Assembly: GCA_031411295.1 (NCBI GenBank)
Contig: JANOAV010000035.1
Location: 68,926 to 132,925 of the forward strand
Length of the DNA: 64,000 nt
Direction of reading: 5' to 3'
DNA from: Verrucomicrobiales bacterium
Lineage (GTDB): Bacteria; Verrucomicrobiota; Verrucomicrobiia; Verrucomicrobiales; V1-33
Positions within the stretch are counted from its first letter, which is position 1. Each line of letters starts with the position of its first letter. A program made the translations under genes and the position numbers. The notes below the pieces were generated by a model, which was not told the DNA's origin, searched no databases, and saw only the letters and a program-made list of their open reading frames with translations. Below, piece by piece: positions 35,565-57,202 of this stretch.

Positions 35565-38231
35565 CTAATTCATGAACAATGGTATGCTAACCGTGAAGGT
35601 AGTTCCGTGACCGACGATGGAATTGATGTGCAGGGTGCCTCCGTGGAGATCTACGCAGCGCTTCACAATGACGAGACCGAGGCCAGTGCCAGGAATATCT
35701 CCTACGTTGCTGCCGCGTTGGAAGGCTTCGAAAAGATTTTTCTGATCCTCAGGCGGGATCCCGATACCTTGGTCGATCACTTGAAAAACCGCTAAATTCC
35801 CCTCACGTTTGCTGGTGAACTGGACCGCTCCTCCGTCCGGTGAGTATTTCACAGCGTTGTGGATGAGGTTGGAAAAAATATGCCGCAACAGCGCTTCATC
35901 AGCCTGAGCGTTACTCAGCAAGCCTTCGGTCACGCAGGTGATGGTGCATTTACGATTCGTGGCGGAGAGGCATTCATCGGTGAGTTTGCCTGCCAGAGTT
36001 TCCAGATCGCAGGAGGCTAGTTTACACGACACAGCTCCCGCTTCGACCCGGCCCAACACGAGCATTTGTTCCATCAGTCCGGCCATGTGACGCGTGGAGG
36101 AAAAGATGTCCTGTTGTAGTTCCGCGCGTTTATCGGCCGCTAGGCGTTCATCGTAATGGCGAATTAGCTCGATCGCGCTCATGATGATCCCTAACGGCGT
36201 GCGGAATTCATGGCTCACCATGGTGACGAAGCGGGATTTCAATTCGCCCAGCTCACGTTCCTTTTCCAATGCCAGGGTGAGTTCCGCCTGGGTCTGCTTC
36301 AATTCGGCGGTGCGTTGATTGACGCGCTGCTCCAGCGTTTGATTCAAGGCCAGCATGGCTTCCTCAGCCGCTTTTGTTTCCGTAATATCATTGTGCACCG
36401 TGACCACCTCAATGATCTGACCGGCTTCATTTTTCAAAGGATAGAGCACCCCGCCGATCCAGCGGTAGGTGGGTGGATCTTGGCTAACGGGGTAAGGAAC
36501 CGGCGGCACTTGAATGGCCTGCCCTGCGAAGGCTTGGCGAATGAGGTTGACGGCACCGGAGGCGTTGAGGTCGGGATCTTGCAGCACGTTAAAAGCCAAC
36601 CCCTGCTCCTCGGTGAGCCGGAAGAGTTTCATCCAGGCAGCGTTGACGCGTTTGGTCTGACCATCAGGCGCGAAAATTTGCACACTGAGCGGGCTTTGCT
36701 CAAAGAGCAGTTTCCAGCGCAACTCGCTCTCCCGGGCGGCCGCGGTGATGGACTTCAACTCCGCCGCAGCCTTCGCGTGCCTGCGGGTGGTGCGGCGCAG
36801 GATGGCGATCCAGCCTAGCAAGAGCGCCAACAACGTCAGGGCACTACCCGCCCAGAGCCAGAGTTGGCGGGAGCGCGCATGGGAGGAAACACCCAAGGAT
36901 TGCACGTCGCTCAGGGATGAAAGTCGCAATTGGATCGGTTCCTGCGGAGTGATGCGCTCTACCAGAACGTTGGCTAGCAGCTCATCATCCACCTTCAGAT
37001 TCGCAAAAGCGGTGCGACCAGCGGTTTGGTAGCTCAGAGGCACGGAAACGCCCTCATCTTCCAACAGCATGACGGTGCGCCACTCGCCACCGCCTACAGG
37101 TAATGAATGCAACAGCGTGAGGCGGCCGTGCACTTGCACGAGATCATGCGTCCATTTGCCCGCAGAGATTTCGCGCAGAGTGGTGGGGATGGGCTTTGGT
37201 GCAGGCTGGTGCCCAAGGACGCGGACGTGGCAGTAGCAGAGCGCAAATTTCTGTAACTCAGGCTCTGCGGTGTCCGCCATCGGCGTGCCCACCATCTCTA
37301 CCACATCGCCCGGCTGCAACTGTGGCAAGGATCCCGCATCGGCATATTCTTCATCACTGGCTACCCGCGGCCAGGCGGTCGCCAGGAGATTGCATTGCGC
37401 GCCCTCATGACTTGCCATGCCGCGCAGATAGATCATGCGTTCGCCAAAACGTGCCAGGACCGTGCCGGAAACCTTGACCCGAGAGCCAGGGACCGTGCGC
37501 TGGGCCGCCACTTCCGGCAAGGAAACCGCTGGGGCCTCGAAGGGGTCGGCGTGGCCAGGTTGGAGAATTTCAATTTGCGCGACGCTGGGAACCGTCATCG
37601 CGCCAAAGGCATCGTGGCTGGTCTCACTGGCATTGACGCCTGTTAGGCGAAGTTTCGCCCCCATGAGAAGGGTGGCGATCGGTGGACGGCTCTCCACCCG
37701 CACTGCCACCGTGGTCCAGCCGTCAGCGCCCACCAAGACGATCATTAGCTCGTTCGTGTGGCTCCGGAATTTCCAGCGCAGCACATGCCCTTCCACGCTG
37801 ACCCATTGGTCGAAGTTCTCGAATCGATTTAGCGCCCTAATGGAAATGGGTTTCGGAGGCGGGAGGTGGCCTTGCTCATGAACCTGAATTTCACGGGCTC
37901 GCACTCTGGGATGCGAGTGGCCTGCGATCACATGGGTGAAGGTTTCGCCCGTCACCTCCAGGGACACTCCAACCTTGGGACAAACCATGTTTCCCGGCAA
38001 ATGCACTCCCACGCTGCGAGTGCCATCATGCAGCGTGAGAGCATGATCCACCGGGCTGGCATCGATCACCACCCCGTTCAACTTCACCGGGGAAGCGGGC
38101 TCCCCTGGCTCCCGCCGTGTGACTTGGTCAATGCTCGTCTGTTCCTGCGCACGCATTACCCCGCCTGTAATGCTGGAAAGGATTGCGATGATGAAGAGCT
38201 GAAAACGAGGAGCGCGCATAAAACTCGGCAA
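35565..38231 (-). CDS. Orphan sensor histidine kinase HK1 (large extracytoplasmic domain, TM, PAS, HisKA, HATPase_c)
   Basis: Signal/TM at the N-terminus, TM segment LWLWAGSALTLLALLLGWIAIL, a PAS region, H-box SHEFRTPLGIIMSAIELIRHYDERL, and G boxes DQGIGIP and GTGLGLVI. No adjacent response regulator. Confidence 0.9.
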   Translation of the reverse strand: MPSFMRAPRFQLFIIAILSSITGGVMRAQEQTSIDQVTRREPGEPASPVKLNGVVIDASPVDHALTLHDGTRSVGVHLPGNMVCPKVGVSLEVTGETFTHVIAGHSHPRVRAREIQVHEQGHLPPPKPISIRALNRFENFDQWVSVEGHVLRWKFRSHTNELMIVLVGADGWTTVAVRVESRPPIATLLMGAKLRLTGVNASETSHDAFGAMTVPSVAQIEILQPGHADPFEAPAVSLPEVAAQRTVPGSRVKVSGTVLARFGERMIYLRGMASHEGAQCNLLATAWPRVASDEEYADAGSLPQLQPGDVVEMVGTPMADTAEPELQKFALCYCHVRVLGHQPAPKPIPTTLREISAGKWTHDLVQVHGRLTLLHSLPVGGGEWRTVMLLEDEGVSVPLSYQTAGRTAFANLKVDDELLANVLVERITPQEPIQLRLSSLSDVQSLGVSSHARSRQLWLWAGSALTLLALLLGWIAILRRTTRRHAKAAAELKSITAAARESELRWKLLFEQSPLSVQIFAPDGQTKRVNAAWMKLFRLTEEQGLAFNVLQDPDLNASGAVNLIRQAFAGQAIQVPPVPYPVSQDPPTYRWIGGVLYPLKNEAGQIIEVVTVHNDITETKAAEEAMLALNQTLEQRVNQRTAELKQTQAELTLALEKERELGELKSRFVTMVSHEFRTPLGIIMSAIELIRHYDERLAADKRAELQQDIFSSTRHMAGLMEQMLVLGRVEAGAVSCKLASCDLETLAGKLTDECLSATNRKCTITCVTEGLLSNAQADEALLRHIFSNLIHNAVKYSPDGGAVQFTSKREGNLAVFQVIDQGIGIPPEDQKNLFEAFQRGSNVGDIPGTGLGLVIVKRCVDLHGGTLHINSIVGHGTTFTVSIPLFMN

Positions 38232-39071: not shown

Positions 39072-39296
39072 TCAGCGCGGGGCTGCAGTGATCAGAACCG
39101 CCGAAGCGGGTGCTGGGTTGGCTCCCGCGTCCGACCACTTGTGGGTGCCAGCCTGTAGTGATCCGGCAGCGAAGCCCAGCATGGTCAGGCCTAGCAGGCG
39201 CAGCCACACGGAACGGACCGAGCGACGTGGTGCGGCCATGGACGGACCACCGAGGCGGTGGATGATGACTTTGGGATAGGAGGCGTTTTGTTTCAT
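39072..39296 (-). CDS. Small secreted ORF, possibly a remnant N-terminus of a larger surface protein
   Basis: MKQNASYPKVIIHRLGGPSMAAPRRSVRSVWLRLLGLTMLGFAAGSLQAGTHKWSDAGANP.. (74 aa from the internal ATG). It sits downstream of a partial copy of the motif array and leader. Confidence 0.35.
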   Translation of the reverse strand: MKQNASYPKVIIHRLGGPSMAAPRRSVRSVWLRLLGLTMLGFAAGSLQAGTHKWSDAGANPAPASAVLITAAPR

Positions 39297-39427
39297 ATGA
39301 GTTTCGCAGTTTGCGGTGATTGAGAGTGAGTGAAGTGGTTCCAGGGCTGTGAGGGCAGAAAGTGCAGCGTCAGGCCGGGCCACTCATTTGGTGTGAGTGC
39401 AGTTTCTCATGATTTGAGAAATGCGGT

Positions 39428-39490
39428 ATTGGACCTCAGTCGGATGCGTTGCTGTTCATTAGCTGTTAGAATATCCGACTTTGGTCGGAT
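39428..39490 (-). promoter_or_regulatory. Two-site dyad array (site 3 at 39428..39445, site 2 at 39473..39490)
   Basis: Minus-strand reading: ATCCGACCAAAGTCGGAT, 27 nt, then ATCCGACTGAGGTCCAATACC. Centre spacing is 45 bp and there is no site 1. Confidence 0.55.
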
Positions 39491-39532
39491 GGAGGACAGG
39501 ATCATGTAGGAAAGAATCATCCTGCAAAATAG

Positions 39533-39640
39533 GTAGAGAGCGAGGTAACGAGACCAGCCCCACGCCCCACAGTAAAAGCGCCACATGGTGCTGGTCTCCT
39601 GACGTCGCCCTCCACATAACCCGTAGCAGGCGAGGTAACC
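39533..39640 (+). repeat. Hairpin repeat family R2, copy A
   Basis: GTAGAGAGCGAGGTAACGAGACCAGC..GCTGGTCTCCTGACGTCGCCCTCCAC plus a partial second unit CCGTAGCAGGCGAGGTAACC. It lies downstream of the FG-GAP gene stop. Confidence 0.6.
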
Positions 39641-39738: not shown

Positions 39739-42700
39739 TCACGGCACTTCCTCCACCAGCATCCTCACAAAAAATCTCGGCATCGTCTGCGGCGTATGGC
39801 CCGTGGCGAAAGTTAAAAACGTCCGCCCGCCGACAACCTGAATGGTCGGGTTGCCGCGAGTCCAAACGCCGCCAGTCTCGCTGGCGAAATTATTCCAGAT
39901 CGGCATCTGGGAACCGTCCTCAATCCTCATCCGCACCCGTGGATTGGCCAGTGCCGCATTACTGGCGGTAACCCTGACGTTCACGGGCGACTGCGCAGTA
40001 GGCATCGGTAGCACGGTCAGACGCGCAGCGGCGTTGAGCGATGGCTCTGCCACTGTGGGATTCGTGCCCAGAAAATACTCCAAAAGATTGTAAACACCGT
40101 CGCCATCGGAGTCAGCATAGTTGGCTGCGGTGCCGGTGCCGTCATACTGACCCCAGTTGGTGAAGCGCCAGTTTTCCAGAGTCCCAGTGACGACGAGGCG
40201 CACTAACGCTTCGTCCGTGAGCATGGGATCCAGACGGAAGTCGAGCGTTGGCACTCCCGTGTGCGCTACCAAGGTGCCTGCCGTGGTCGGGTCAGTGACG
40301 TGCTGGATGAAGCAGCCGCGCAACGCGGAGGCATCGGCATTGGCCGTCATACGAATGCGGACCCACAGACGCACGGTCTGGCCGGGGGCAAAATTGATAC
40401 CCGTTGCTGGTGTAACCGTTAGGTAGCCGGTTGAAGTAACGGACCCCACGCTGCCAACCAAGGGATCAATCCCAGACTCGAAATTCATTGGCTCACCGAG
40501 GTCGTTATAGATCTCCACGGCACTAATGAGGGCAGACGCTTGGGCTGTCGTGAGGCCTGCACCCGGATTTAAGCTATTGCCGTAGTTCACGGCCGACAGG
40601 AGTCGAAAGCGCAGACTGCGGATCGCGGCGGAGGCATCCCCGGTGCGTCCGGCATGGGTAAAACTAAGCAACATGGCCACAGGGGCGGCTGAAGGCGTGA
40701 CCGGGATAACGTCGCCCATCCCCAGTTCCATCAGATCAAACTGACCGCAGTTGTTGTAAACGAGTTGCACCTCGTTCCCAGCGGTATCCAGCAACAAAAT
40801 GTCCATGTCTCCATCATGCTCCACATCATACACGACCATGCGATTCAAGGCGGCACCGGAAGCTGAAAAAATGACGTTGGCGGCCCCGAAAGTCCCGTCC
40901 CCTTTCCCTAAGACTAGCACCGCCACGCCACCCCCAGCGGCCACGAGATCCAGCACTCCGTCATTGTTAAAGTCTGCTGCTTCTGCGCAGCGCAGGCCCG
41001 CAGGCAGCCCAAGAATCGGCTTCGGCGTGCCCAAGGTCAAGCTCGTGATCGTGGAAGGCGCGCAATTCACGGTGCCAGTGACAGCATAGAACACATCGGA
41101 GGCTTGGTCCCGATTCGCATCGCCCGTGGCCAACAGACCGGAGGCGCTGTCCCCTTCCCACAGTGGCGTTGGATTGAGCCAAAAGCCAAAGGCCGAGCTC
41201 CAGGCATAACGATAGATGCGGCTGCGGACCGGACTAGTCTCCGTGGTCATGGCCATTAGTTCCAGCCGACCGGAGCCATTGATTTGCACCGGGCAAATCT
41301 TCGTCACGGGTCCTATATTGCTGACCACAATTTCCGTAGTCCAACTGGGAGTATATGCGCCACCTCTGCGCAGCAACGTGATTCCAGTGGCATGACCGAT
41401 GATGATATCGTTGTGGCCATCCTGATCCACATCCGCCACCATCAATTCAGTGGTGCCGGGCGGCAGGGGCGCGACGTTTGTTACCACCCACGTCGAGGCT
41501 GCGCGTGAGACCAACTGCAATTGCCCAATGCCTTCAGCAGCGGTCACCACATCGTCACGACCATCATGGGTGAGGTCGCCCACGGCCAGCACACTAGCTC
41601 CAGCAATGGAGGTGGATATCACCTGCGAATTACCCAGCGCAGGCCCGACGTCGGTATACCGATGCCCACTTTCCCATTTCACCGTATTAAGGGAGGGAAT
41701 GGACCACACCAGATCTCCCTCGCCATCATTGTCCATGTCCCCAGGACAAATATCTCCAATGGGGGCGGACGCATGGATGACCTGTTGGGAGCTAAACTCA
41801 GCGCTGCGGTGAATGGCCGTGTTCCGCAACCAAAAGATACTGCCGATAGCGCTATAAACGAGGTCCGGGTCACCATCACCATCCACATCACCGGAGTAGA
41901 TTTCCGCAGCTTCGTTACCAGCCAGCAGCACCTTGGGAACTAGAAAACTCCCCCCACTGTTCTCCGCCCACAAAATCTGGTGCGAGCCCTGATTACTGTT
42001 GTCCACGTAGAACGCCTGATCTCCGAACACGGCATCCAGATCGCCATCTTCATCCACGTCAACGAGGTGGGTGCCACGCACCCGGCCCGTCGTGTGATTT
42101 TGGATGGAGCTTGGCGCATCGAATCCAGCCCCGTTCCAACGGCACCATGAACTCCGCTGAGCCAAGCCAGCGGTGCCACTAGTCAACACCAGATCGGGGT
42201 AACCGTCACGATCAATGTCCCCACTTTCCATGTGGGTAATGGATCCAGTAAACGTGATATCCGGCCAGGATTGAAAAATGCCGGACGGGGTGCCGCCCAG
42301 GGAGGCAACATTGGTCGCTCCCATCGTCAGATCCATGAAACCATCTTGATCGAAATCTTCCGTCAGCGCTTCGAGCCAATAGGTGGCTGTGACATTCTGC
42401 GTCATTGGTGGCTGGAGCGTGAAGACTCCCGCATTATTTGCCGCCCAAGCAATGCGCCGCACCGATTCCCCGGTCACGGTGTGAAACAATCCTGCATCAA
42501 GGTCCCCATCGCTGTCGTAATCACCCACAATCGCTCCTGCTTGCAGCGCGGCATCAGGAACCGCAACCTCCAGCACTTTCGTAAAAACAAAGTTTGCGTC
42601 ATTGCGCAGCACGACGAGTTGCGAGGGGCTCAAGGTATTGAGGACCACATCCGTGTCACCATCGCCATCCATGTCCCGAGTTACCACCCGGCCCAGCGAG

Positions 42701-42996
42701 GCAGCCGGCCAGGAAAGCGTGGCCACCTGAGTGAACGAGGTTCCGGTGGTGTAACGCATCCATACCAAATTATGCGTGGAGGCTGTCAGCACCTCCTCCT
42801 GACCATCCCGATTGAAATCCGCCACTCCCACCACTTTGCCGAAACTAGTTTGGATCGTCGTCGGCCCAGTAAAAGGATAGGCCATCGCGCGAGGAAGCAA
42901 TGCCGCGAGCATCATGACAGTGCAGAAGATGAGCTTCACTGCGGGACCAGCGAAGCGACGGGTGATGACTTTGGAAAGGGACGGGGTGAATTTCAT
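39739..42996 (-). CDS. Giant secreted FG-GAP/VCBS-repeat (integrin-alpha-like propeller) protein
   Basis: At least 12 Ca-binding-type repeats (DMDGDGDTDVV, GDYDSDGDLDAG, DFDQDGFMDL, GDIDRDGYPDLV, DVDEDGDLDAV, GDVDGDGDPDLV and others), a C-terminal DSDGDGVYNLLEYFLGTNP, and a signal peptide. Confidence 0.9.
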   Translation of the reverse strand: MKFTPSLSKVITRRFAGPAVKLIFCTVMMLAALLPRAMAYPFTGPTTIQTSFGKVVGVADFNRDGQEEVLTASTHNLVWMRYTTGTSFTQVATLSWPAASLGRVVTRDMDGDGDTDVVLNTLSPSQLVVLRNDANFVFTKVLEVAVPDAALQAGAIVGDYDSDGDLDAGLFHTVTGESVRRIAWAANNAGVFTLQPPMTQNVTATYWLEALTEDFDQDGFMDLTMGATNVASLGGTPSGIFQSWPDITFTGSITHMESGDIDRDGYPDLVLTSGTAGLAQRSSWCRWNGAGFDAPSSIQNHTTGRVRGTHLVDVDEDGDLDAVFGDQAFYVDNSNQGSHQILWAENSGGSFLVPKVLLAGNEAAEIYSGDVDGDGDPDLVYSAIGSIFWLRNTAIHRSAEFSSQQVIHASAPIGDICPGDMDNDGEGDLVWSIPSLNTVKWESGHRYTDVGPALGNSQVISTSIAGASVLAVGDLTHDGRDDVVTAAEGIGQLQLVSRAASTWVVTNVAPLPPGTTELMVADVDQDGHNDIIIGHATGITLLRRGGAYTPSWTTEIVVSNIGPVTKICPVQINGSGRLELMAMTTETSPVRSRIYRYAWSSAFGFWLNPTPLWEGDSASGLLATGDANRDQASDVFYAVTGTVNCAPSTITSLTLGTPKPILGLPAGLRCAEAADFNNDGVLDLVAAGGGVAVLVLGKGDGTFGAANVIFSASGAALNRMVVYDVEHDGDMDILLLDTAGNEVQLVYNNCGQFDLMELGMGDVIPVTPSAAPVAMLLSFTHAGRTGDASAAIRSLRFRLLSAVNYGNSLNPGAGLTTAQASALISAVEIYNDLGEPMNFESGIDPLVGSVGSVTSTGYLTVTPATGINFAPGQTVRLWVRIRMTANADASALRGCFIQHVTDPTTAGTLVAHTGVPTLDFRLDPMLTDEALVRLVVTGTLENWRFTNWGQYDGTGTAANYADSDGDGVYNLLEYFLGTNPTVAEPSLNAAARLTVLPMPTAQSPVNVRVTASNAALANPRVRMRIEDGSQMPIWNNFASETGGVWTRGNPTIQVVGGRTFLTFATGHTPQTMPRFFVRMLVEEVP

Positions 42997-43040
42997 GAGA
43001 TTTTGGAAGTTAGATTGAGATGGGTTAAAATATTTCCAAC

Positions 43041-43229
43041 GTTGTGTCGCGACCTGGCACTGTTACTTTCCGTGATTCCCCGGCTCCCTCACACGAGGGA
43101 ACCCGGCGTGGCGCGGGTTACTGATGCCCACCAAGGCTGAATCAGGTCCGCGCAGTTCTCCGCCTAGAGGTTAGGCAGAAAGAGCAGCGCCAGGCCGCGA
43201 CACTCATTTGGTGTGAGGGTAGTTTCCCA
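43041..43229 (-). promoter_or_regulatory. Conserved ~190-nt leader, copy 1 (upstream of the FG-GAP gene)
   Basis: By eye it aligns with 45962..46149 at roughly nine identical positions in ten, with one 1-nt indel. The 45-70 nt next to each ATG and the coding regions are unrelated. Confidence 0.6.
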
Positions 43230-43247
43230 TGTTTTGAGAAATGCGGT

Positions 43248-43341
43248 ATTGGACCTCGGTCGGATGAGTTGCTGTTGAATAGCTGTTAGAATATCCGACT
43301 TTAGTCTTAGAAATGGCTGACAAGTCCGACGTTGGTCGGAT
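43248..43341 (-). promoter_or_regulatory. Three-site dyad array upstream of the FG-GAP gene
   Basis: Site 3 at 43248..43265, site 2 at 43293..43310, site 1 at 43324..43341. Centre spacings are 45 and 31 bp. Confidence 0.6.
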
Positions 43342-43343
43342 GG

Positions 43344-43421
43344 GTAGAGGACAAAGCTCGAGACCAGCACCTCGCAGTCTTTCTCCTGCGAGGCGTGGGT
43401 CTCGTTACCTCGCCCGCTACG
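43344..43421 (-). repeat. Hairpin repeat family R2, copy B (inverted orientation)
   Basis: GAGACCAGCACCTCGCAG..CTGCGAGGCGTGGGTCTCGTTACCTCGCCCGCTACGGG. It lies just downstream of the NHL gene stop. Confidence 0.55.
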
Positions 43422-43499
43422 GGATCATGCAAAACACCCGCCGGAGTTTCCTCCTGCGGGTGTTGGCTGCGTCGGTTCAAACTTTACCGACTGCTCATG

Positions 43500-45890
43500 T
43501 CACCGCCCTTGAAGGCGATAGAATTTCTTCGGCCCTGAGGGAGGGGCGGTGGCGGTCCAGGTCAGGATGCCACCAGCGGGCATGGTGTCAGTGCGCTCGA
43601 TGGTGCTCCAGTCGAGCAGGTCGGTGGAGGAGCGGATGTCGTATTGTTCGCCCTGGGGACCGCTGATGGTGAGGGTGAAGCGATTCTGAGGATTGAAGCC
43701 GAACGCGGTGATCCTGCTGGAGAGGCCGGGACTGAAGCGCAGGAGGTTCCCGTTAGCCACCCAGATGTGACCAGCACTGTCCAGCGCCACGCGGGAGGCG
43801 CCCTGATAGGTGCCATAGACTTTTGCGGGATCACCGAAGGAGCCGTCGGGCACGACGGTGGCAGGCTGGGTGTGGGCACTTTGATACCATGCGATGTCCT
43901 TCTGATCATAGCGGGAAAGGTAAAGGGTGTCGCTGGCACCGAGGCCCAGGCCGGAGACGAGCGTGCCAGTGGCCGCGTTGTTGGTGGTGAAGTTCGGTTG
44001 CAGCAGCACTCCGTCGGCGTTGCCGTTGTTCGGTTTATTCACCGCAGCTTCAAAACGCAGCACTCGCTCATTGCCCGTGTCTGCGACCCAGAGGCGGCCA
44101 GTGATGAAGTCCACTGCGAGGCATCCAGGAAAATAAAGACCGCTGGCACTGAGCGGATGCGTGCCGGCGGTGGTGAGATTGGACGCGCCTAACACGCCGG
44201 AGGCTGCCCCGCCGTTGCCGAGAGTGATCGGGCTGTCGAAGCGCAGCACGCGATGGTTGTTGCGGTCGGAAACCCACAACCGGCGGACGACGGTCTGGAA
44301 GGTCGCATTAAATCCCCATTCCACCGCCAGCCCGGACGGAGTGTTGAGGCGGGACGCGCCCAGTCCGCTGCCAGCGGCAGTGAAGGTTGCCTGGCCGAGC
44401 ACTTGGCTGGCCGCAGTGCCGCTGGCAATCGTGGTGGCATTGGCAAAGCGGAGCACACGATGATTGCGGGCGTCAGCGACCCAAAGGTTGCCGAGTCCAT
44501 CGTAAGCCAGACTGCCCGGGCCGTCCATCTTCGAGGCCGTGGTGCCGCCAGTTGTGGTATTGAAATCAGGCTGCCCTAGCACGGCCTCGGGCACACTATC
44601 GGCTGTGAGTGATGGTGCCGCAGGGAAGCGGAGCACGCGGTTTCCAGAGGCATCGGACATAAAGAGTTTCCCACTGACGGACTCAACGAGCACCTCGTTG
44701 GCCCCAAGGAACGTGGGGCGTGCGAAGGACTTCCTTCCCAACACGCCGTCCGCATCCGTGCCGTTGCCTTTGGTAGCTGCATTGTCGTGGCGCACGACGC
44801 GGTTGGTGGTGTCACCAATCCAAAGGCGTCCGGCAAAGGCCGCAATGCTGGTCGGAAGCGTGAGGCCGCCCGCGCTTTCGGACATGCTGGCGGAGTTGAA
44901 GTCAATCTGTCCCAGCACGAGATCGGCATTGGCTCCGATCGCCTTGCTGCCTGCAGCCGTGAAATAGAGCGCACGATGATTATTGAAGTCCGCAACCCAC
45001 AGGCCGCCGTTGTCCATCGCAGCCTTGTAAGGCCGGTTGAGACGACTCGGGCCGCCCGCACCAGGAGTCGCGCCATAGACCGACTGACCCAACAGCTTGT
45101 CGCTCGGAGCCCCATTGATTTTGGCCCCGGGATTGTTGAATCCAAGCACACGGTTGTTATACCAATCCACTACCCACAGGCGCACTGTGGTGCCGCCGGA
45201 ATTTTCCACCGCTAGACCAGTGGGTGTATTGAACTCAGTTTCGGTTCCGCCGCTGAATCCACCCGTCATGGAGGTCTGGCCCAACACCCCGTCGGCATTC
45301 ACCCCACTGCTGCGGCTGGCGGCATTGTCAAAACGCAACACGCGGCTGTTTGAGGAATCCGCCACCCACAGCCGGCCAGCGGCATCCATTTCCACATCTT
45401 GCGGTGACTTCATGCGGTTGGCCGCCGTGCCGAAGTCTGTGGAAGTAAAATTTGGCTGCCCCAGAACTACGGAAGCTGCCGCACCGCTGCTGGCGGTGAG
45501 TGCATTATCAAAGCGGAGCACCCGGCTGTTTCCCGTATCCGCCACCCAGAGTCTGCCGCCAGCGTCCACACAGATACCCGAGGGATCATTCAATTGATTC
45601 GTCCCCGCCCCAGGCAGCAACTCATCCATGTCGGCGGCCCCAAACACCGCCTCCGCCAACCCGCCGTTCTGCAGCGATGCCGCCGAACTGAAGCGCAGCA
45701 CACGGTGCCGCGCACCATCGGCCACAAACACTTTCTGCTGCACGGGATCCACTGCGATGTCCTTCGCAGAAAAGAGCCCTGCGGCTTCCATGCCGCCGAT
45801 GACAAGGTCCGGGGTCTGACCGGAAGTGAAACCCGCCTGCGCAGTCGCAGTGGTAAGGAGTAAGGCGATAAGCAATGCGAGTCTGTTCAT
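43500..45890 (-). CDS. Secreted NHL-repeat beta-propeller protein
   Basis: Signal peptide MNRLALLIALLLTTATAQA. At least 10 NHL-type units end in N(H/S)RVLRF (ARHRVLRFSS, GNSRVLRFDN, RNHRVLRFAN and others). Confidence 0.9.
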   Translation of the reverse strand: MNRLALLIALLLTTATAQAGFTSGQTPDLVIGGMEAAGLFSAKDIAVDPVQQKVFVADGARHRVLRFSSAASLQNGGLAEAVFGAADMDELLPGAGTNQLNDPSGICVDAGGRLWVADTGNSRVLRFDNALTASSGAAASVVLGQPNFTSTDFGTAANRMKSPQDVEMDAAGRLWVADSSNSRVLRFDNAASRSSGVNADGVLGQTSMTGGFSGGTETEFNTPTGLAVENSGGTTVRLWVVDWYNNRVLGFNNPGAKINGAPSDKLLGQSVYGATPGAGGPSRLNRPYKAAMDNGGLWVADFNNHRALYFTAAGSKAIGANADLVLGQIDFNSASMSESAGGLTLPTSIAAFAGRLWIGDTTNRVVRHDNAATKGNGTDADGVLGRKSFARPTFLGANEVLVESVSGKLFMSDASGNRVLRFPAAPSLTADSVPEAVLGQPDFNTTTGGTTASKMDGPGSLAYDGLGNLWVADARNHRVLRFANATTIASGTAASQVLGQATFTAAGSGLGASRLNTPSGLAVEWGFNATFQTVVRRLWVSDRNNHRVLRFDSPITLGNGGAASGVLGASNLTTAGTHPLSASGLYFPGCLAVDFITGRLWVADTGNERVLRFEAAVNKPNNGNADGVLLQPNFTTNNAATGTLVSGLGLGASDTLYLSRYDQKDIAWYQSAHTQPATVVPDGSFGDPAKVYGTYQGASRVALDSAGHIWVANGNLLRFSPGLSSRITAFGFNPQNRFTLTISGPQGEQYDIRSSTDLLDWSTIERTDTMPAGGILTWTATAPPSGPKKFYRLQGR

Positions 45891-45961
45891 GGTATGAATG
45901 AAGTTGCAGGAATTCTCCTGTTGGTTTGGGTTTTGCAGTGATTGAAGAAATGGAATCCAAA

Positions 45962-46149
45962 GTGATGTCGCGGCCTGGCACTGTTACTTTCCGTGGTTCC
46001 CCGGATCCCTCACACGAGGGCTCCCGGCGTGGCGCGGATTGCTGATGCCCACCAAGGTTAATCAGGTCCGCGCAATTCTCCGCCTAGAGGTTAGGCAGAA
46101 AGTGCAGCGCCAGGCCGCGACACTCAGTTGGTGTAAGGCTAGCTTCCCA
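45962..46149 (-). promoter_or_regulatory. Conserved ~190-nt leader, copy 2 (upstream of the NHL gene)
   Basis: See 43041..43229. A shorter third copy of the distal ~75 nt lies at 39352..39427. Confidence 0.6.
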
Positions 46150-46168
46150 CACCTGGCAGAAAACGGGT

Positions 46169-46262
46169 ATCGGACCTCAGTCGGATACGTTGCTGCTGAT
46201 TAGCTGTTAGATCATCCGACTTTAGTCCTAGAAGCCCGTGTCAATTCCGACCTTGGTCGGAG
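46169..46262 (-). promoter_or_regulatory. Three-site dyad array upstream of the NHL gene
   Basis: Site 3 at 46169..46186, site 2 at 46214..46231, site 1 at 46245..46262. Centre spacings are 45 and 31 bp. Confidence 0.6.
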
Positions 46263-47148: not shown

Positions 47149-47205
47149 GGCTATGGAAGCTCTTGGTGGCGTGGGTAATCTTTCCACCACCGGACCAAAT
47201 AGGGT

Positions 47206-47266
47206 ATCGGACTTCAGTCGGATAAAGCAACGTTCTGCGGTATCGGGCATCCGACTAATGGCGGAT
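47206..47266 (-). promoter_or_regulatory. Two-site dyad array upstream of 46603..47148
   Basis: Site 3 at 47206..47223 (minus strand ATCCGACTGAAGTCCGATACC). A degenerate site 2 at 47249..47266 (ATCCGACTAATGGCGGAT). Centre spacing is 43 bp. Confidence 0.45.
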
Positions 47267-47316: not shown

Positions 47317-50300
47317 TTAGTTCCATGCCGGAATCCGCACTGTGAAGGTGGTGCCTTCCCCAAGTTTGGAGTGCACTTCCAAGGTGCCACCATGTAGTTC
47401 CGTGCACCGCTTGCAGAGCACCAAACCGAGGCCAGTGCCGGCAATGTTACCGACGTTACTGGCTCGATGGAAGGCTTCGAAGAGCTCTGGCAGGTCGGCC
47501 TCCGGGATGCCGATGCCACTGTCCCGCACGGTAAATACCGCCATGCTGCCATCGCGTCGTGCGCTGAGATGCACTGCCGATCCTTCTGGAGAATATTTCA
47601 CCCCATTGCTAAGTAGATTGGTGAAAATATGGCGCAGCAGAGCCTCATCCGCCTGGGCTCCCGCAAGTTCACTTTCCGCAGTCCAGACAATGGGACACCT
47701 GCCGTTTGTCAGAGACCATTGCTCGTCAGTGACCTTGCGGGAGAAGGCATTCAGATCCAGCGGAACCGGCTTGGAACCGAGTTTGCCAGCATCCACCCGT
47801 CCCAAGACCAGCACCTGTTCCATGAGGCCAGCCATATTACGCGTGGAGGAATGGATGTCCTGGAGCAATTGTTTTTTCTCCTCCGGCGGAAGGCGATCCT
47901 CATAGTGTTGCAATAGTTCAACTGCGCTCATCGTGATGCCCAGCGGAGTGCGGAATTCGTGACTCACCGTGGTCACAAATCGATTTTTCAGCTCATTGAC
48001 CTCACGCTCTGCGGCAAGCTCGCGTTCCTTTGATGACGCCAGATCCACCGCTTCCACGAACTCGCTCGAGAGCCGCTTCTGGCGACGAAAGAGCGCCACC
48101 CCAAGCAAACTAGCAGCAGTAGCGGAAACGAGACCAAGGACAATGGGCAGCAGGCCGGAGTTACTGGTTTCTGATTTGTTGGTAAGATGATTTGCAATCG
48201 GTGAACCAGCCGTCCAATCCAGACCAAGTTCAGCCAGATGATCCCGTCGCAACGCGCCCAGATTGATGACGCGAGCATTTCCCCCCGGCCCCGTGGCGAA
48301 CATGCGTGAGGCATCGGCAGAGAAACGCAAGCCTGTTAGCGGGTAAAGTCCCGGCACTTGAAACGATGCCAGTGACTTGCCATTGCCAGCGCTGGCGATC
48401 TCCGCGCTGTCCAGATCGCCAGTCCATGCGAGCATGGTGCCATCTCCCGAAAATGCTGCGGCCCCGAGAAATCCTGCCAACGATGCCGGACGGGCCACGG
48501 ACCAGTTTTCCTGCCATGACCCCACCGACCACAGTTGCACGTTGCGGACGCCAATCGTCACCAGCGAACGGCTGTCCGGGCTGAAGCACACATGCGCCAC
48601 CGGACAAGGCAGGCGCGCTACTAGCTTGCCCGTGCCCGCATCCCAAATGGTGGGATCTCCCGAAACCGTGTCGCGTCCAGCCACGACCCATTTCCCATCC
48701 GGGCTGATCGCCAGCGCCCCGGAACCCAACGCACTAGCCGGCCCCGGCAAGTCCTGAGGAAAGCGCGTCCCTTGTTCCAGAGCCAAGGGCGCGGAAGGGT
48801 CCGCCATTTTCACGACATAGAGCTGGCCATCACTGCAGGCAATGGCCGCAACTTTTCCAAGATCGCTAAACGCTGCCATCACGGGAGTCAGACCAGCCGG
48901 CAATGGAATGCGACCGGCCTCCGGCAAACCTCCCTTCGGCAAGTTGGCAAGATCCGGCCATTCGTGAATCGTGAGCGCTCCCGGAGCGCTGAGCCAGATG
49001 CGATTGGTGCCAGGCAAAAATCCAGCGCAAACCTTGCGTCCAAGCGGCAGCAAGGCCTGCAGGGAACGATCCGGCTCAAAAAGCTCGAGGGAATGCGCCC
49101 CGGTCCAGATGGGCGGAGACCACAACGCGCGACGACCATCAGTTGAGAAATCCTGCTGCCAAATGGTGGCCCCGTCCGTGTAGCGTCCTTGCAGCAGCGT
49201 ATCTGATGAAGGTTGCGCCACGCGCCAAACGCCAACTTTCTGCTTCGGAATACCCCAGGCGATGCGATCCCCGCGTCTCGATATCACCACCCCGCGAGCC
49301 GCATTCGACTGACACAACAGCTTGGCGGTGGACACATCCCAGAGACTGGTTACTCCGTCCAACCCAGCCGTAAGCAGCAGTGAACCATCCTCATTGAAAC
49401 GCTGCACCCACGGCTGCACGGTGCGACCACCCAGCTGCAGTAACCGACCCGAGGCGGCCTCCATGAGGAAGAGCGTGGCATTCCCGCAACCAAATGCGAG
49501 ACGGTCCCCACGCTGATCCCAATCCAGCGTCTTCACAGAGGTCGGAGCTAGCGCCGTGTGTTTCACCGCACCCGAGACCGCATCCAAGAGAAAAACTTGC
49601 GCCCCTTGAAACCATGCCAGCAGATCTCCGCGTGGGCTCACCGCCACTTGATTCTGCGGGCCGGTATATTTCAAAAGATCCGGCATAGTGGCGGGCCGCC
49701 GTGGCTGTTTACTGGCGATATCATAGAGCACATCAGTTCCCTGGGAGCCGGAAAGGGTGATTCCCATCGTCAGATCATTCGCAGTAAAGGTAGGCGGCCA
49801 CGAGTAGTTTGCGGACTTCGCATCCATTCCTAAAATGCAGACCGTGCTCCCCTTATCACGCTCGAACAACACCAGCGGGCCCTTTTCATAACGCACTGCG
49901 AGATACTTCCCAGTGGAGGAAAACTGAAAGTCCATGGCTGCACATTCGGCCGGCACTTCCGGCGGGCGGGGAAAATCCCTAACCAGAGCATTATCTTCCA
50001 AGCGAAACATCGAAACCACGCCCAACTGGTAGCGCGTGACATAGTGCTCAAGCTCTGGATCGAACGCGAAGCCGCGGACATTTTCTTTCAAATCCCACGC
50101 CACCTCGGTTTCAAAATCCAGGGATCGCAACGCCGCGATCGCTTCGTTTCGTAACTCCACAGAAGGTCGGATGGCCGCCGCCGCCCGCACTGCGCCCAGC
50201 GCGGCCGCACGATGCCCTGCCTGCGGGTTGGTGCGCTCCGCGCTGGCCCGCGCCAGCGACACGCCCCAAAGCCGTTCGGTGGCCTCACTCTCCGCCTGCT

Positions 50301-50484
50301 CGGCTCGCAACTGATGCCGCCCACTGCGAATGGCGAAATACACTGCCAGGCACGCCAGGCCCAGCGCCACGAATAGCAGCAGCCCCAAAGCACGATTCGC
50401 GCGCAGCAGATCAGCCTGCACTTCATTGCGGCGTTTGGTCAAGAGTTTGGCTTCTCTTTGGTTGGCGGAACCTTTTATTTTCAT
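47317..50484 (-). CDS. Orphan sensor histidine kinase HK2 with a ~700-aa extracytoplasmic WD40-like beta-propeller sensor
   Basis: TM1 LLLFVALGLACLAVYF. WD40-like units (LLTAGLDGVTSLWDV, SPDGKWVVAGRD..PTIWDA, FSPDSRSLVTIG..VQLWSV). TM2 LLPIVLGLVSATAASLLGVALF. H-box SHEFRTPLGITMSAVELLQHYEDRL and an HATPase_c domain. Confidence 0.9.
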   Translation of the reverse strand: MKIKGSANQREAKLLTKRRNEVQADLLRANRALGLLLFVALGLACLAVYFAIRSGRHQLRAEQAESEATERLWGVSLARASAERTNPQAGHRAAALGAVRAAAAIRPSVELRNEAIAALRSLDFETEVAWDLKENVRGFAFDPELEHYVTRYQLGVVSMFRLEDNALVRDFPRPPEVPAECAAMDFQFSSTGKYLAVRYEKGPLVLFERDKGSTVCILGMDAKSANYSWPPTFTANDLTMGITLSGSQGTDVLYDIASKQPRRPATMPDLLKYTGPQNQVAVSPRGDLLAWFQGAQVFLLDAVSGAVKHTALAPTSVKTLDWDQRGDRLAFGCGNATLFLMEAASGRLLQLGGRTVQPWVQRFNEDGSLLLTAGLDGVTSLWDVSTAKLLCQSNAARGVVISRRGDRIAWGIPKQKVGVWRVAQPSSDTLLQGRYTDGATIWQQDFSTDGRRALWSPPIWTGAHSLELFEPDRSLQALLPLGRKVCAGFLPGTNRIWLSAPGALTIHEWPDLANLPKGGLPEAGRIPLPAGLTPVMAAFSDLGKVAAIACSDGQLYVVKMADPSAPLALEQGTRFPQDLPGPASALGSGALAISPDGKWVVAGRDTVSGDPTIWDAGTGKLVARLPCPVAHVCFSPDSRSLVTIGVRNVQLWSVGSWQENWSVARPASLAGFLGAAAFSGDGTMLAWTGDLDSAEIASAGNGKSLASFQVPGLYPLTGLRFSADASRMFATGPGGNARVINLGALRRDHLAELGLDWTAGSPIANHLTNKSETSNSGLLPIVLGLVSATAASLLGVALFRRQKRLSSEFVEAVDLASSKERELAAEREVNELKNRFVTTVSHEFRTPLGITMSAVELLQHYEDRLPPEEKKQLLQDIHSSTRNMAGLMEQVLVLGRVDAGKLGSKPVPLDLNAFSRKVTDEQWSLTNGRCPIVWTAESELAGAQADEALLRHIFTNLLSNGVKYSPEGSAVHLSARRDGSMAVFTVRDSGIGIPEADLPELFEAFHRASNVGNIAGTGLGLVLCKRCTELHGGTLEVHSKLGEGTTFTVRIPAWN

Positions 50485-50548: not shown

Positions 50549-50642
50549 ATCCGACTAAAGTCGGATACGGAACTGAAATGCAGGACCAAAGTCGGATGCT
50601 CCAGGCCCCTCTAGCAGATCCCTTATCCGACCATGGTCCAAT
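50549..50642 (+). promoter_or_regulatory. Three-site dyad array in the divergent HK2 / DUF4870 intergenic region
   Basis: Site 1 at 50549..50566 (ATCCGACTAAAGTCGGAT), site 2 at 50580..50597, site 3 at 50625..50642 (ATCCGACCATGGTCCAAT). Centre spacings are 31 and 45 bp. Confidence 0.6.
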
Positions 50643-50675
50643 ACCACAATCAGCAGAATTGTGGAAGGATGAAAC

Positions 50676-52677: not shown

Positions 52678-52721
52678 ACAGGCAGTGATTCGCGAAGAAT
52701 TGCGGATGTTGGCGGCGGCGT

Positions 52722-52739
52722 ATCCGACTAAAGTCCTAG
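52722..52739. promoter_or_regulatory. Single dyad site upstream of HK3
   Basis: ATCCGACTAAAGTCCTAG, centred about 65 nt upstream of the proposed HK3 ATG at 52796. It lies inside the longer track ORF. Confidence 0.5.
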
Positions 52740-52795
52740 GTGCCGGGTGGGGGTTGGGCTTGCGGCGGGTGGGGGTCGCTGCGAAGTTATTGGCT

Positions 52796-55700: not shown

Positions 55701-55954
55701 ATTTCCGCGCCCGACGCGAAGGACTCATGGCGGTATTTACCGTGCAGGACAGCGGCATTGGCATACCAGAGAAGGATCTGCCCCAGTTGTTCGAAGCCTT
55801 CCATCGCGCCAGCAACGTGGGGGAAATCCCCGGCACTGGCCTTGGTCTCGTGCTCAGCAAACGTTGCGCAGATCTCCACAACGGCAGCATCCAAGTGAAA
55901 TCCACCCCGGGCTCAGGCACCACATTCACCGTGCGCATTCCAGCGTGGGGGTGA
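52796..55954 (+). CDS. Orphan sensor histidine kinase HK3, paralogue of HK2 (WD40-like propeller sensor)
   Basis: Collinear with HK2 from the N-terminus (RANRAVGL..RLWKASLEQARAQ..IRPSVELRNEAIAAL) through the propeller, TM2 and H-box SHEFRTPLGITMSAIELLRHYEDRL. The start is moved to MNHEGQQ. Confidence 0.9.
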   Translation: MNHEGQQTGETAETENFAQRREFVRRSVLRANRAVGLILGVVVLLGLVLVILGQQARESQRRAELAEQGATDRLWKASLEQARAQNLGTKAGHREGALEAVRTAAKIRPSVELRNEAIAALSQRDLVQEREWTLQPKAYGTVFDPELKYYVERYQDRVLSLFRVEDNSHVHNFPMPFFYPKNANVGDYVFSSTGKYLVIRYNGGGLTLWDPLKAQMLRVLNLDPRAAQYSWPPSFSADDRLMGLSMNGSAGFQMVYDLEKGEVRPLGATPGKLAYRGGFNFVRVSPRGDLIAAWDTNMIYVFDAVTGELRHSVQGQSTIEAIAWDYQGKRLSLACDDWSVSIWEPSGGQMMQLNGKAHRAWFQEFSRDGNLLVASGIDGMTRLWDAVSGRLVCEQGGLLAARVSPDGQRIAGGRHRQTSGIWRVEQPVALKLFRGAWAKRATAWMMDLTGDGRRGVWSPPWWVGQNGYEVFDFEKGTSIVRADKDRLFAGFRPGHDQLWTTSGGALKFYDLPAEGTVPEAAALTMALPKGINGIVASFNADGRYVALSGPQRALAVMDLNAPTAPPVTLERAFTSADSSLPGPASTTGGGPLAMSPDARWVAAGMNVDGGRPVIWDAHSGRIVQRLNCALGYVTFSPDGLYLTVVSSARLVCFAMDGWKLLWERERDLQQSYCGIAAFNGDGSLLACSMGSARVVFYTLQGDAVAEWDFRDLLYVANLRFAADGSRLFAGGLEGRIASVDMTALRQVLATLQLDWPLRASTTTPTVTTSSGTNAWGPALLGLISVGVAAALGALVLRRQRRLTGEFVETTELAARRTQELAAEKEVSELKSRFVTTVSHEFRTPLGITMSAIELLRHYEDRLPPTEKKQLFEDIHSSTKNMAGLMEQVLLLGRVDAGKLAYKPVPVDLDALARKLTDESLSATNRKCPITWQAENDLSGAHADEALLRHILTNLLSNAVKYSPAEALVHFRARREGLMAVFTVQDSGIGIPEKDLPQLFEAFHRASNVGEIPGTGLGLVLSKRCADLHNGSIQVKSTPGSGTTFTVRIPAWG

Positions 55955-55981: not shown

Positions 55982-56043
55982 CTAAGACTAAAGTCGGATA
56001 AGATCGCACCATAAATACTCTCCTTATCCGACTGAGGTCCGAT
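55982..56043 (+). promoter_or_regulatory. Two-site dyad array upstream of the DUF4412 gene
   Basis: Site 2 at 55982..55999 (CTAAGACTAAAGTCGGAT), site 3 at 56026..56043 (ATCCGACTGAGGTCCGAT). Centre spacing is 44 bp. Confidence 0.55.
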
Positions 56044-56127
56044 ACCCAAGTGGATCAAGGTGTGGGAAAGGTATCTCACGCCACCCGGCACACCCCAATT
56101 CATCAAAACAACAAAACTTACAACACC

Positions 56128-57090: not shown

Positions 57091-57202
57091 TCGCCCCTCG
57101 CCCAAGCCGCCCCACACACAAGCGCCGACTGGCCTCCCGCTGGTCGGGGTTCTGTGCGTCCGACCTCTATTGACAATTGCAAAAGATTCGACAGCAAAAA
57201 CT

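Follow-up and report, generated by a model that had tools for sequence, protein, structure and literature searches.

A candidate structured leader domain on an exchangeable promoter cassette of a Verrucomicrobiales regulon

Related promoter and leader elements

Putative mobile promoters (PMPs; Matus-Garcia, Nijveen and van Passel 2012; commentary PMC3575422) are sequences at least 80% identical over at least 50 nt in the -150 to -50 zone of non-homologous genes within one genome. The same account adds that such promoters can carry RNA motifs along and that an Rfam match is lacking for most (PMC3575422). We analysed a 64,000-nt stretch of a Verrucomicrobiales contig (the window), in which two similar blocks, copies B and C, precede genes for two unrelated secreted proteins, one with FG-GAP and one with NHL repeats. 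This pair falls within that working definition, since its identity (91% over 189 nt) lies above the threshold and the downstream coding sequences, for FG-GAP and NHL domain proteins, are non-paralogous. It differs in two respects from PMPs as that account presents them, namely as a descriptive class without a mechanism: the repeat can be dissected into operators, a leader motif and a folded domain, and exchange is directly visible between near-identical alleles at two related loci, L022 and L023.

Hundreds of copies of the Neisseria Correia elements (CREE/NEMIS), and likewise of ERIC elements, lie scattered over many contexts, and Correia elements have TA target duplications. In the descriptions drawn on here, both are ~100-160 nt long, have long terminal inverted repeats, lie between promoter and gene and are co-transcribed; their long hairpin can be bound by RNase III, with cleavage or protection as the outcome, and strains are polymorphic for their presence (PMC2649163; PMC3575422). 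The block shares with elements so described its terminal inverted repeats, with arms of 18-19 bp. Unlike them, it was found at one position of one regulon's leader only (181 kb searched) and forms a multi-hairpin junction rather than a simple hairpin, and the comparison implies no sequence similarity.

Structural determinants of stability or processing in a 5' UTR include the 5' stem-loops of ompA and, for rnc and pnp, leader sites for RNase III; the put and EAR RNAs act in processive antitermination. The block is like these in having autonomous, stable helices in a long leader that leave the ribosome-binding region free, and it would likewise act in cis without ligand sensing. It has no sequence or Rfam relationship to them, however, and its function is read from anatomy and conservation pattern. 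Riboswitch aptamers share its size, its closing helix with several hairpins and its 5'-UTR location, but the block is conserved in stems rather than junctions and has neither an expression platform nor an Rfam match.

Anatomy of the cassettes

The features of the locus, in window coordinates, are as follows.

39072..39296, 74-aa ORF downstream of copy A
39335..39383, minus strand, copy A, an internally deleted block remnant (alignment; repeat families D2/D3)
39384..39486, minus strand, cassette A: leader 5' segment and operator module (sites 3 and 2); operator part 92% identical to B
39739..42996, minus strand, FG-GAP repeat protein gene, 1085 aa, downstream of cassette B (Pfam FG-GAP_3, E = 1.3e-54)
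42997..43043, minus strand, ATG-proximal C/A-rich leader of the FG-GAP gene; 45% identical to the C equivalent in a forced alignment
43044..43203, minus strand, block copy B, 160 nt, in the FG-GAP leader (MFE -104.3 kcal/mol, z -7.4; covariance model (CM) R1, 182.8 bits)
43204..43244, minus strand, conserved 5' leader segment of B (…CAUGGGAAACUACCCUCACACCAAAUGAG), directly 5' of the block; motif common to 16 leaders
43245..43332, minus strand, operator/promoter module of cassette B (sites 3, 2, 1)
43355..43465, minus strand, pair of terminator-like hairpins separating the NHL stop codon from cassette B (-70.7 kcal/mol, z -7.1)
43500..45890, minus strand, NHL repeat protein gene, 796 aa, downstream of cassette C (Pfam NHL, E = 1.4e-49)
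45891..45964, minus strand, ATG-proximal leader of the NHL gene, not common to copy B (alignment, leader fold)
45965..46123, minus strand, block copy C, 159 nt, in the NHL leader (MFE -104.5 kcal/mol, z -6.1; CM R1, 188.7 bits)
46124..46165, minus strand, conserved 5' leader segment of C (…GGUGUGGGAAGCUAGCCUUACACCAACUGAG); same 16-leader motif (alignment)
46166..46262, minus strand, operator/promoter module of cassette C (sites 3, 2, 1); 77% identical to the B module
47203..47256, minus strand, operator-only promoter copy F, no block (operator pattern)
50590..50645, plus strand, operator-only promoter copy E, upstream of a DUF4870 gene; 31 nt from site 3 to ATG
55992..56046, plus strand, operator-only promoter copy D, upstream of a DUF4412 gene; leader motif present, block absent

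A first-pass annotation of this DNA had noted that about 190 nt upstream of the two genes agree at nine positions in ten with a single indel. Global alignment of 43041-43229 with 45962-46149 bears this out, with 172 of 189 positions identical (91%) and one 1-nt gap, but the full homology is longer. It runs from 43035 to 43340 and from 45956 to 46261 (86% over 307 nt, E = 2e-98, BLASTN) and takes in the dyad operator sites. The shared unit is a cassette in which three dyad operators of the 7-4-7 type are followed by a conserved leader motif and then by a 160-nt domain. The block itself, 92.5% identical between B and C with ~12 differing positions, occupies -48 to -207 relative to the start codon in B and -75 to -233 in C. 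Both genes do lie downstream of the blocks, as annotated, although their orientation had to be corrected: they are on the minus strand, so that the block is upstream in the sense orientation when the window is read from right to left. At 1085 and 796 aa their products are large rather than giant.

The similarity stops on both sides. As had been noticed, the leader next to each ATG and the coding sequences are unrelated: forced alignments of the ATG-proximal 38-65 nt and of the first 100 nt of coding sequence gave 45-53% identity (53% for the FG-GAP versus NHL coding sequences). DNA beyond dyad site 1 is likewise unrelated between B and C, at 45-53% in forced alignment. The ATG-proximal leader of the FG-GAP gene has no obvious Shine-Dalgarno sequence. 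A third copy, A, had been described as ~75 nt; it is present but spans 133 nt (39354-39486) at 90% identity to copy B. Besides operator and leader it retains just the block's 5' arm, and the inner ~125 nt are missing. This 5' arm (GUGGCCCGGCCUGACGCUGCACUUUCUGCC) faces a degenerate 3' arm (CAGCCCUGGAACCAC) without hairpins P1-P3, and copy A scores just 11 bits with the CM and has a whole-leader MFE of just -22 kcal/mol.

The operator sites define a regulon within the window. The pattern AGTCGGAT-N24-30-ATCCGAC-N4-GTCCRATACC has six matches against zero expected, at A, B, C and three other promoters. Within cassette B, site 3 is ATCCGACCGAGGTCCAATACC with a -10-like ATACC end, site 2 is GACTAAAGTCGGAT and site 1 is TCCGACCAACGTCGGA. 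In the genome collection the pattern occurred at five loci of Prosthecobacter, Brevifollis and Verrucomicrobiaceae MAGs; each has the operator alone, and the CM search detected no block there. With regard to the regulator of ATCCGAC-N4-GTCGGAT, a NarL/GerE-type response regulator gene lies close to the orthologous locus in L011. The leader motif, common to 16 leaders from the window and related loci, ends in ACCAA(A/C)UGAG, and RNAalifold found no consensus hairpin in the motif 5' of the block in these 16 leaders. A sigma-54 or ECF-type reading of its TGGGAA..GCAC was set aside by eye, with spacing inconsistent across copies. Also by eye, a conserved upstream ORF of 5-8 codons ending at the UGA of ACCAAnUGAG was considered and left as unproven; it occurs in B, A, L022, L011 and L013 and is absent from the C, L023 and L020 leaders.

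The block lies between the operator module, with dyad site 3, and the start codon, as first proposed, and the sequence places a probable promoter upstream of it. Transcription of the FG-GAP gene would start inside the cassette, because the terminator-like hairpins, the first directly followed by UUUUGC, stand just upstream of the operators. No sigma-70-like site was found on the minus strand between block and ATG. Copy E, with only 31 nt separating site 3 from ATG, offers further backing for this promoter placement.

Fold, homologues and distribution of the domain

The domain is predicted to fold into a closing helix of 18-19 bp plus a 5-bp extension around three hairpins (MFE ~-104 kcal/mol, z -6 to -7). 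In copy B the closing helix is GUGUCGCGGCCUGGCGCUG / CAGUGCCAGGUCGCGACAC, the extension is CUUUC/GGAAA, and the enclosed hairpins are P1, P2 and P3; the stem CCGG-TCCCTC-ACAC-GAGGGA-CCGG, singled out in the first-pass annotation, is P3. The closing helix is G+C-rich, and its arms have 100% of cells paired in four sequences. In silico, closing helix plus extension give a near-perfect helix of about two turns or more, such as an RNase III-processed leader calls for, in four of four sequences. When whole leaders are folded, the domain still forms a unit of its own and positions -25 to +12 are largely free, with unpaired probabilities of 0.58-0.81 (mean 0.72 in the FG-GAP leader). No U-tract follows the closing helix. 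The window had no match in Rfam 15 at the gathering threshold, the blocks in the window and in L022 had only noise matches at E up to 10, and ARAGORN reported no tRNA or tmRNA.

Homologues of the block were found in other metagenomes, complete at L022 and L023 and contig-truncated at L012 (3' part) and L020 (5' part). All six block occurrences are at one position of the regulon's operator/ACCAACUGAG leader. A CM search of 181 kb (the 64-kb window and 17 loci of ~117 kb) found no further copies. A metagenome scan with a 22-base block pattern conserved in A, B and C returned only chance or coding matches, for example in an MFS transporter; this pattern was too strict, since the L020, L022 and L023 copies differ within it.

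We counted covariation in an alignment of the four complete sequences (B, C, L022 and L023) fitted to the model. Paired cells made up 97%, and compensatory double changes occurred in 8 of 50 predicted pairs, spread over four helices, compared with 0-2 pairs in shifted-register controls; with just four sequences from two lineages, these counts carry no formal significance. Between lineages, paired columns were 78-83% identical and unpaired columns 44-49%, where the proteins adjoining the block are 61% identical. Long inverted repeats can also gain compensatory changes by template-switch mutation, without selection on RNA. The first-pass annotation counted a lack of further homologues, or of covariation, against the leader idea; this objection fails because there are homologues in other lineages and compensatory changes.

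The domain is not a constant part of these leaders. The closest FG-GAP orthologue (69% aa identity, L011) has a leader without the block, and no block lies upstream of six NHL orthologues (60-65% aa identity; L015/L016, L017, L018, L019, L020, L021), which have degenerate operators and short leaders. Where orthologous leaders are without the block (L011, L013 and, at L020, the NHL leader), a 4-6-bp hairpin occupies the site. Absent from L011 and from all NHL orthologues examined, and deleted in copy A, the domain is by this sequence distribution evidently dispensable.

Exchange of cassettes and competing explanations

Identity among the window copies is mosaic: B is like A in the operator part (92%) and like C in the block (92.5%), with B and C only 77% identical in the operator part. 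In L011, the nearest relative, the leaders of the orthologous genes are dissimilar. At L022 and L023 the FG-GAP alleles have coding sequences 99.94% identical and the last ~47 nt of the leader identical, while identity is 82% in the block and different genes lie upstream. Since near-identical alleles carry different cassettes, cassettes are exchanged by recombination, which accounts for near-identity in front of unrelated genes. Recent duplication had been raised as an alternative to a functional leader. Together, the mosaic, the dissimilar L011 leaders and the L022/L023 swap make recent intragenomic exchange of the whole cassette the best explanation of the 91% identity, and that alternative is to this extent partly right.

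We put at roughly 0.5 the probability that this is the promoter-leader cassette of a dyad-operator regulon in a probable member of the Verrucomicrobiaceae, exchanged by recombination, with a co-transcribed structural 5'-UTR domain that has a processing or stability role. A cis-acting leader RNA specific to this regulon, as first suggested, is supported by the stable autonomous fold, the position between promoter and start codon, the homologues in the same leader and the compensatory changes, whereas the embedded small RNA offered alongside it is without evidence. For the FG-GAP gene and the NHL gene alike, the block would be co-transcribed within the 5' UTR, immediately following the invariant ACCAA(A/C)UGAG and apparently in place of the 4-6-bp hairpin of other lineages. 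There it would fold independently and leave the start-codon region unpaired. Because helices are conserved and junctions and loops are not, we interpret it as a cis structural module rather than a ligand sensor; most likely it is a duplex that governs processing or stability, either as a substrate of RNase III or by protecting the 5' end. Whole cassettes, comprising operators, leader and domain and ending ~12-25 nt past the closing helix, would be swapped among regulon genes by homologous recombination or gene conversion. Among possible structural roles, RNase III processing is not specifically favoured over others such as polymerase-binding antitermination or 5'-end protection.

An unlikely account sees in the block a selfish palindromic element, mobile but non-autonomous (MITE, Correia or REPIN-like), that inserted into, or targets, the small hairpin of the leader, with any effect on expression incidental. 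Its 19-bp terminal inverted repeats are indeed the most conserved part, loops and junctions evolve freely, and presence or absence at orthologous sites does not follow the protein tree. Moreover, the empty L013 site (GCGCCGCGGCGC) equals the filled L022 site minus a 146-nt segment with CCGCGG at both bounds. This apparent target duplication is uninformative, however, because CCGCGG belongs to the palindrome itself. The restriction of six of six occurrences to one regulon-leader position, with none elsewhere in the window or the related loci, also speaks against such an element, as do the break in copy A, which is not at the inverted-repeat ends, and the shared flanks of B and C, which mark these as cassette copies rather than independent insertions. 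Viral contigs (two-arm pattern) and plasmids (BLASTN) contained no block matches, and among non-Watson-Crick cells on the sense strand 15 G.U face 4 A.C, a modest bias in favour of the transcribed strand that is due in part to ascertainment. Distinctly less probable is a recent neutral duplication or gene conversion of the promoter region, the block having no function of its own and its fold being an accident of a G+C-rich palindrome. Cassette exchange clearly occurs, relatives can dispense with the block, which has decayed in copy A, and the ~12 differences between B and C give little information by themselves. Against this, all four helices are kept, with eight compensatory pairs, where the adjacent protein is 61% identical; neutral intergenic DNA at that distance should be unalignable, yet stems have kept far more identity than loops, and the fold z-scores are -6 to -7.

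A junction of several helices, placed in a long 5' UTR and confined to one regulon, could also suggest the aptamer of a new riboswitch or of another ligand- or temperature-sensing leader, and the CUUUCUGCC segment of the window copies has two mutually exclusive pairings. This is highly improbable: L022 and L023 lack the alternative P1 pairing, conservation is lowest in junctions and loops, the opposite of aptamers, the domain is followed by no U-tract and does not sequester the start region, and no Rfam class matched even at E up to 10. In our best reading the domain is not a riboswitch. The least probable reading makes the block a DNA-level element (a cruciform or protein-binding palindrome) or the source of a discrete trans-acting small RNA released from the leader. 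In three of four copies the two strands have almost the same MFE, the strand being clear from MFE for copy B only (whose CM R1 score is 182.8 bits on the minus strand versus 37 bits on the plus strand). The arms, G+C-rich and strongly conserved, could serve as a binding site, and a stable 160-nt domain could persist as a processing product. The 15 to 4 ratio of G.U to A.C cells nevertheless points to RNA of the sense strand, no promoter or terminator brackets the block, and the dyad operators already account for regulator binding.

We therefore return to the structural leader domain, for which a new but unspectacular cis-acting leader RNA is a plausible description. Tentatively, and at somewhat under even odds, it may represent an undescribed family of cis-acting RNA of ~160 nt with four helices and no Rfam match. 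Such a family would be an optional leader plug-in of a Verrucomicrobiaceae regulon that has dyad operators, is of two-component type and serves secreted beta-propeller proteins; it would spread among genes and alleles on an exchangeable cassette and give selected members of the regulon a distinct post-transcriptional fate (processing, stabilisation or antitermination). Even a mere palindromic passenger would still be a useful marker of recombination among the regulon's promoters. The natural contrast between domain and short-hairpin variants in orthologous leaders offers a ready comparison for the effect of a large 5'-UTR helix on mRNA fate. Should the domain be functional, it would give a phylum in which RNA regulation has hardly been characterised a new structured leader RNA. 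It would further show cleanly, in nature, how cassette exchange can rewire regulation, with one operator, leader and RNA domain placed before unrelated genes and swapped between otherwise identical alleles.

Operator and leader modules upstream of the FG-GAP and NHL genes

The first-pass annotation had described two leader regions of about 190 nt, upstream of the FG-GAP and NHL protein genes, as roughly nine-tenths identical with one 1-nt indel, and their alignment matched at 172 of 189 positions (91%) with a single 1-nt gap. BLASTN placed them within a 307-nt homology (43035-43340 vs 45956-46261, 86% identity, E=2e-98). With both genes encoded on the minus strand, the repeat lies upstream of both in the sense orientation. 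As annotated, the coding sequences and the DNA beside each ATG (here 38-65 nt) showed no relationship; DNA past the distal end of the repeat is also unrelated between copies B (FG-GAP gene) and C (NHL gene). The third, shorter copy was likewise found. This copy, A (39354-39486, 133 nt, 90% identical to B), runs from the operator sites through the beginning of the leader into a folding RNA domain of ~160 nt, hereafter the block, of which it keeps the 5' arm alone; ~125 nt of the block interior is missing.

Features of the repeat and its operators in the window
39739..42996, minus strand, FG-GAP protein gene (ORF map, Pfam)
43500..45890, minus strand, NHL protein gene (ORF map, Pfam)
43044-43203, minus strand, block, copy B
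45965-46123, minus strand, block, copy C
39425-39480, minus strand, operator promoter, cassette A (composite pattern)
43245-43300, minus strand, operator promoter, cassette B (composite pattern)
46166-46221, minus strand, operator promoter, cassette C (composite pattern)
47203-47256, minus strand, operator promoter without block, before a 181-aa ORF with no Pfam match (composite pattern)
50590-50645, plus strand, operator promoter without block, before a DUF4870 gene (composite pattern)
55992-56046, plus strand, operator promoter without block, before a DUF4412 gene (composite pattern)

Homology between A and B restarts at the N-terminus of the encoded proteins, since 39244-39311 and 42944-43011 are ~72% identical across the start codon and first ~17 codons (MKQNASYPKVIIHRLGGP.. 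in the 74-aa ORF beside copy A vs MKFTPSLSKVITRRFAGP.. in the FG-GAP gene). This suggests that the 74-aa ORF derives from an FG-GAP paralogue or has a signal region in common with one.

Each full cassette has three parts on the minus strand: an operator/promoter module, a leader motif and the block. The module comprises three 7-4-7 dyads of the type ATCCGAC-N4-GTCGGAT, numbered toward the gene, the third ending GTCC(A/G)ATACC. The pattern AGTCGGAT-N24-30-ATCCGAC-N4-GTCCRATACC matched six times in the window against 0 expected. It also occurs in Prosthecobacter, Brevifollis and Verrucomicrobiaceae MAGs (loci L001-L005), so the operator is the mark of a conserved regulon and the source probably belongs to the Verrucomicrobiaceae. 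In the window this regulon has six promoters in 64 kb, with a fixed two- or three-site arrangement ending GTCCnATACC, serving genes for two small proteins and for FG-GAP, NHL, DUF4870 and DUF4412 proteins. Histidine kinases of the WD40 and PAS types are encoded next to these genes, and a response regulator of the NarL/GerE type is encoded close to the orthologous locus L011 (12853-13500). The kinase genes 35565..38231 and 47317..50484 have an internal 77-nt stretch that is 81% identical (36037-36113 vs 47786-47862), reflecting paralogy of the kinase core at the coding level; 52685..55954 encodes a third WD40 kinase.

The leader motif, ...TG(G/C)GA...CAC(A/G)CC AA(A/C)UGAG, is common to 16 leaders, for which RNAalifold found no consensus hairpin within it. 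Immediately 5' of the block, or of the short hairpin found in its place, the UGA within the invariant ACCAA(A/C)UGAG is the stop codon of a 5-8-codon ORF (43204-43226 and 39384-39406, minus strand; L022 2744-2761; L011 ~930-950; L013 ~126-150), encoding MGNYPHTK, MRNCTHTK, MPHTN, MLHTN and MKAAHPN. This ORF is perhaps a coincidence, because it is missing from the copy C, L023 and L020 leaders; if it is real, a terminating ribosome would occupy the 5' arm of the helix.

Fold and conservation of the block

The sense-strand RNA folds with minimum free energies of -104.3 (B) and -104.5 (C) kcal/mol (z -7.4 and -6.1), and no shuffled sequence folded this low. The consensus structure consists of an 18-19-bp G+C-rich closing helix with a 5-bp extension (CUUUC/GGAAA) and three internal hairpins, P1 to P3. 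In whole-leader folds the block domain is self-contained, and the start-codon region (-25 to +12) is mostly unpaired with or without it (0.58-0.83). Neither a U-tract after the closing helix nor a sigma-70-like site between block and ATG on the coding strand was found. A generic terminator scan marked 43186-43204 (minus strand; 5' arm of the closing helix, then UCUUUCUG) as terminator-like, which we rejected as a real attenuator because the scan had taken in just part of the larger helix.

A covariance model, the means proposed for detecting compensatory changes, was built from four complete copies in two lineages. In the model-fitted alignment, 97% of pair cells are standard pairs, and both sides changed in 8 of 50 pairs over four helices, although compensatory changes in inverted repeats can also come from template-switch mutation without selection. 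They include two U-A to C-G changes in the closing helix, one G-C to A-U at the P2 base and one U-A to A-U in P3. Shifted registers gave 0-2 such pairs, the observed count was reached in 2 of 500 column shuffles, and an independent MAFFT alignment analysed with RNAalifold yielded 7. The potential stem spelled out at first is P3, one hairpin of this larger and stable fold, whose four helices carry compensatory changes. Between lineages, identity is 78-83% in paired and 44-49% in unpaired columns. The proteins beside the block are only 61% identical, so the helices were kept where neutral intergenic DNA should be unalignable. Conserved stems with free junctions fit an element whose helices matter.

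Three indirect observations locate the promoter no further downstream than dyad site 3, in which case the block would lie inside the transcript. Terminator-like hairpins of the upstream NHL gene are directly 5' of the cassette B operators; in operator copy E, which has no block, the start codon is only 31 nt from site 3; and non-Watson-Crick helix pairs on the sense strand comprise 15 G.U cells vs 4 A.C, a modest excess partly biased by the derivation of the structure. Sense and antisense folding energies differed clearly in copy B only.

A second repeat family on the minus strand (39524-39615, 43355-43420, 57194-57285) forms long hairpins (arms GGAGGGCGACGU.AGGAGACC / GGUCUCGUUACCUCGCUCUCUAC; -37 to -53 kcal/mol) immediately downstream of gene stop codons, with a short U-run behind them. 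Its copies are 75% identical and look like terminator-like palindromic repeats. One (43359-43468) matched Rfam 'ar14' below threshold (20.6 bits vs a gathering score of 58.8).

Occurrence in other lineages and cassette exchange

The block itself matched no Rfam family at any threshold, and a strict 22-base pattern returned chance matches only from the metagenome collection. Orthologous proteins were the productive route to homologues beyond the window, for which the first-pass annotation had proposed a search. The FG-GAP protein has three orthologue groups (69%, 61% and 56% identity). The 61% group has the block, complete in L022 and L023 and as its 3' two-thirds in L012, at a contig end. L011 (69%) and L013 (56%) have homologous operators and leader motif, with a short hairpin instead of the block (CACUG-UAGCG-CAGUG and the palindrome GCGCCGCGGCGC, respectively). 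In a fourth lineage, L020, a short hairpin is all that the NHL orthologue leader carries; at the opposite contig end lie an operator, the leader motif and the first 34 nt of a block, with the gene beyond the contig. The remaining NHL orthologues (60-65%) are without the block, and the covariance model found no further copy in 181 kb (window and loci).

Identity within the cassettes is mosaic. Copy B is 92% identical to A but only 77% to C in the operator part, and 92.5% identical to C in the block; the counterpart leaders of L011, the nearest relative, do not resemble one another. Together these patterns imply homogenisation of the three cassettes inside the source lineage. L022 and L023 have FG-GAP coding sequences 99.94% identical (identical proteins), with the downstream 287 nt and last ~47 nt of the leader also identical. 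Comparison of L022 2562-2959 with L023 1-390 shows the cassettes diverging from ~25 nt beyond the closing helix upward: the block retains 82% identity and the operator part visibly less. The upstream genes are not the same either: L022 has a WD40 histidine kinase with 75% identity to window gene 47317..50484, and L023 has an FG-GAP-like C-terminus. These differences indicate either recombination at the cassette or a recent tandem duplication in which the cassette was replaced. B/C homology stops ~12 nt past the helix, nearly coinciding with the L022/L023 boundary, and operator, leader and block therefore constitute an exchangeable cassette. It qualifies operationally as a putative mobile promoter, a class that its authors noted can carry RNA motifs (PMC3575422).

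Interpretation as a candidate leader RNA

The two original readings, leader RNA and promoter duplication, are true at different levels, so the interpretation is partly supported: this is a candidate structured cis leader RNA on a putative mobile promoter, both known kinds. Purely neutral duplication is contradicted by the conservation of helices across lineages. The main rival is a selfish, MITE-like palindrome. It is favoured by the conservation of the terminal repeats, by a patchy distribution and by the empty site in L013 (equal to L022 minus a segment bounded by CCGCGG). However, every copy occupies a single position within one leader family, flanks are common to B and C, and the apparent duplication belongs to the palindrome. 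A riboswitch is disfavoured, as conserved stems with free junctions are the opposite of an aptamer and there is no expression platform, while a DNA-level element or trans-acting sRNA drew no specific support.

As a cis leader RNA, the block would be a co-transcribed, autonomous structural domain acting on its own mRNA, most likely as a double-stranded processing or stability determinant. RNase III binds substrates of the kind that the block's closing helix, about two turns long, forms with its extension. Functionally, the nearest analogue is the Correia/CREE element of Neisseria, which PMC2649163 describes as co-transcribed and either cleaved or protected by RNase III. The anatomy would be equally compatible with polymerase-binding antitermination or with simple protection of the 5' end. 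Other leaders have only a short hairpin at this position, which suggests that the block elaborates on an ordinary leader hairpin. The block is well delimited, open to testing and unsurprising in kind; its predicted function would give certain members of the regulon a different post-transcriptional fate.
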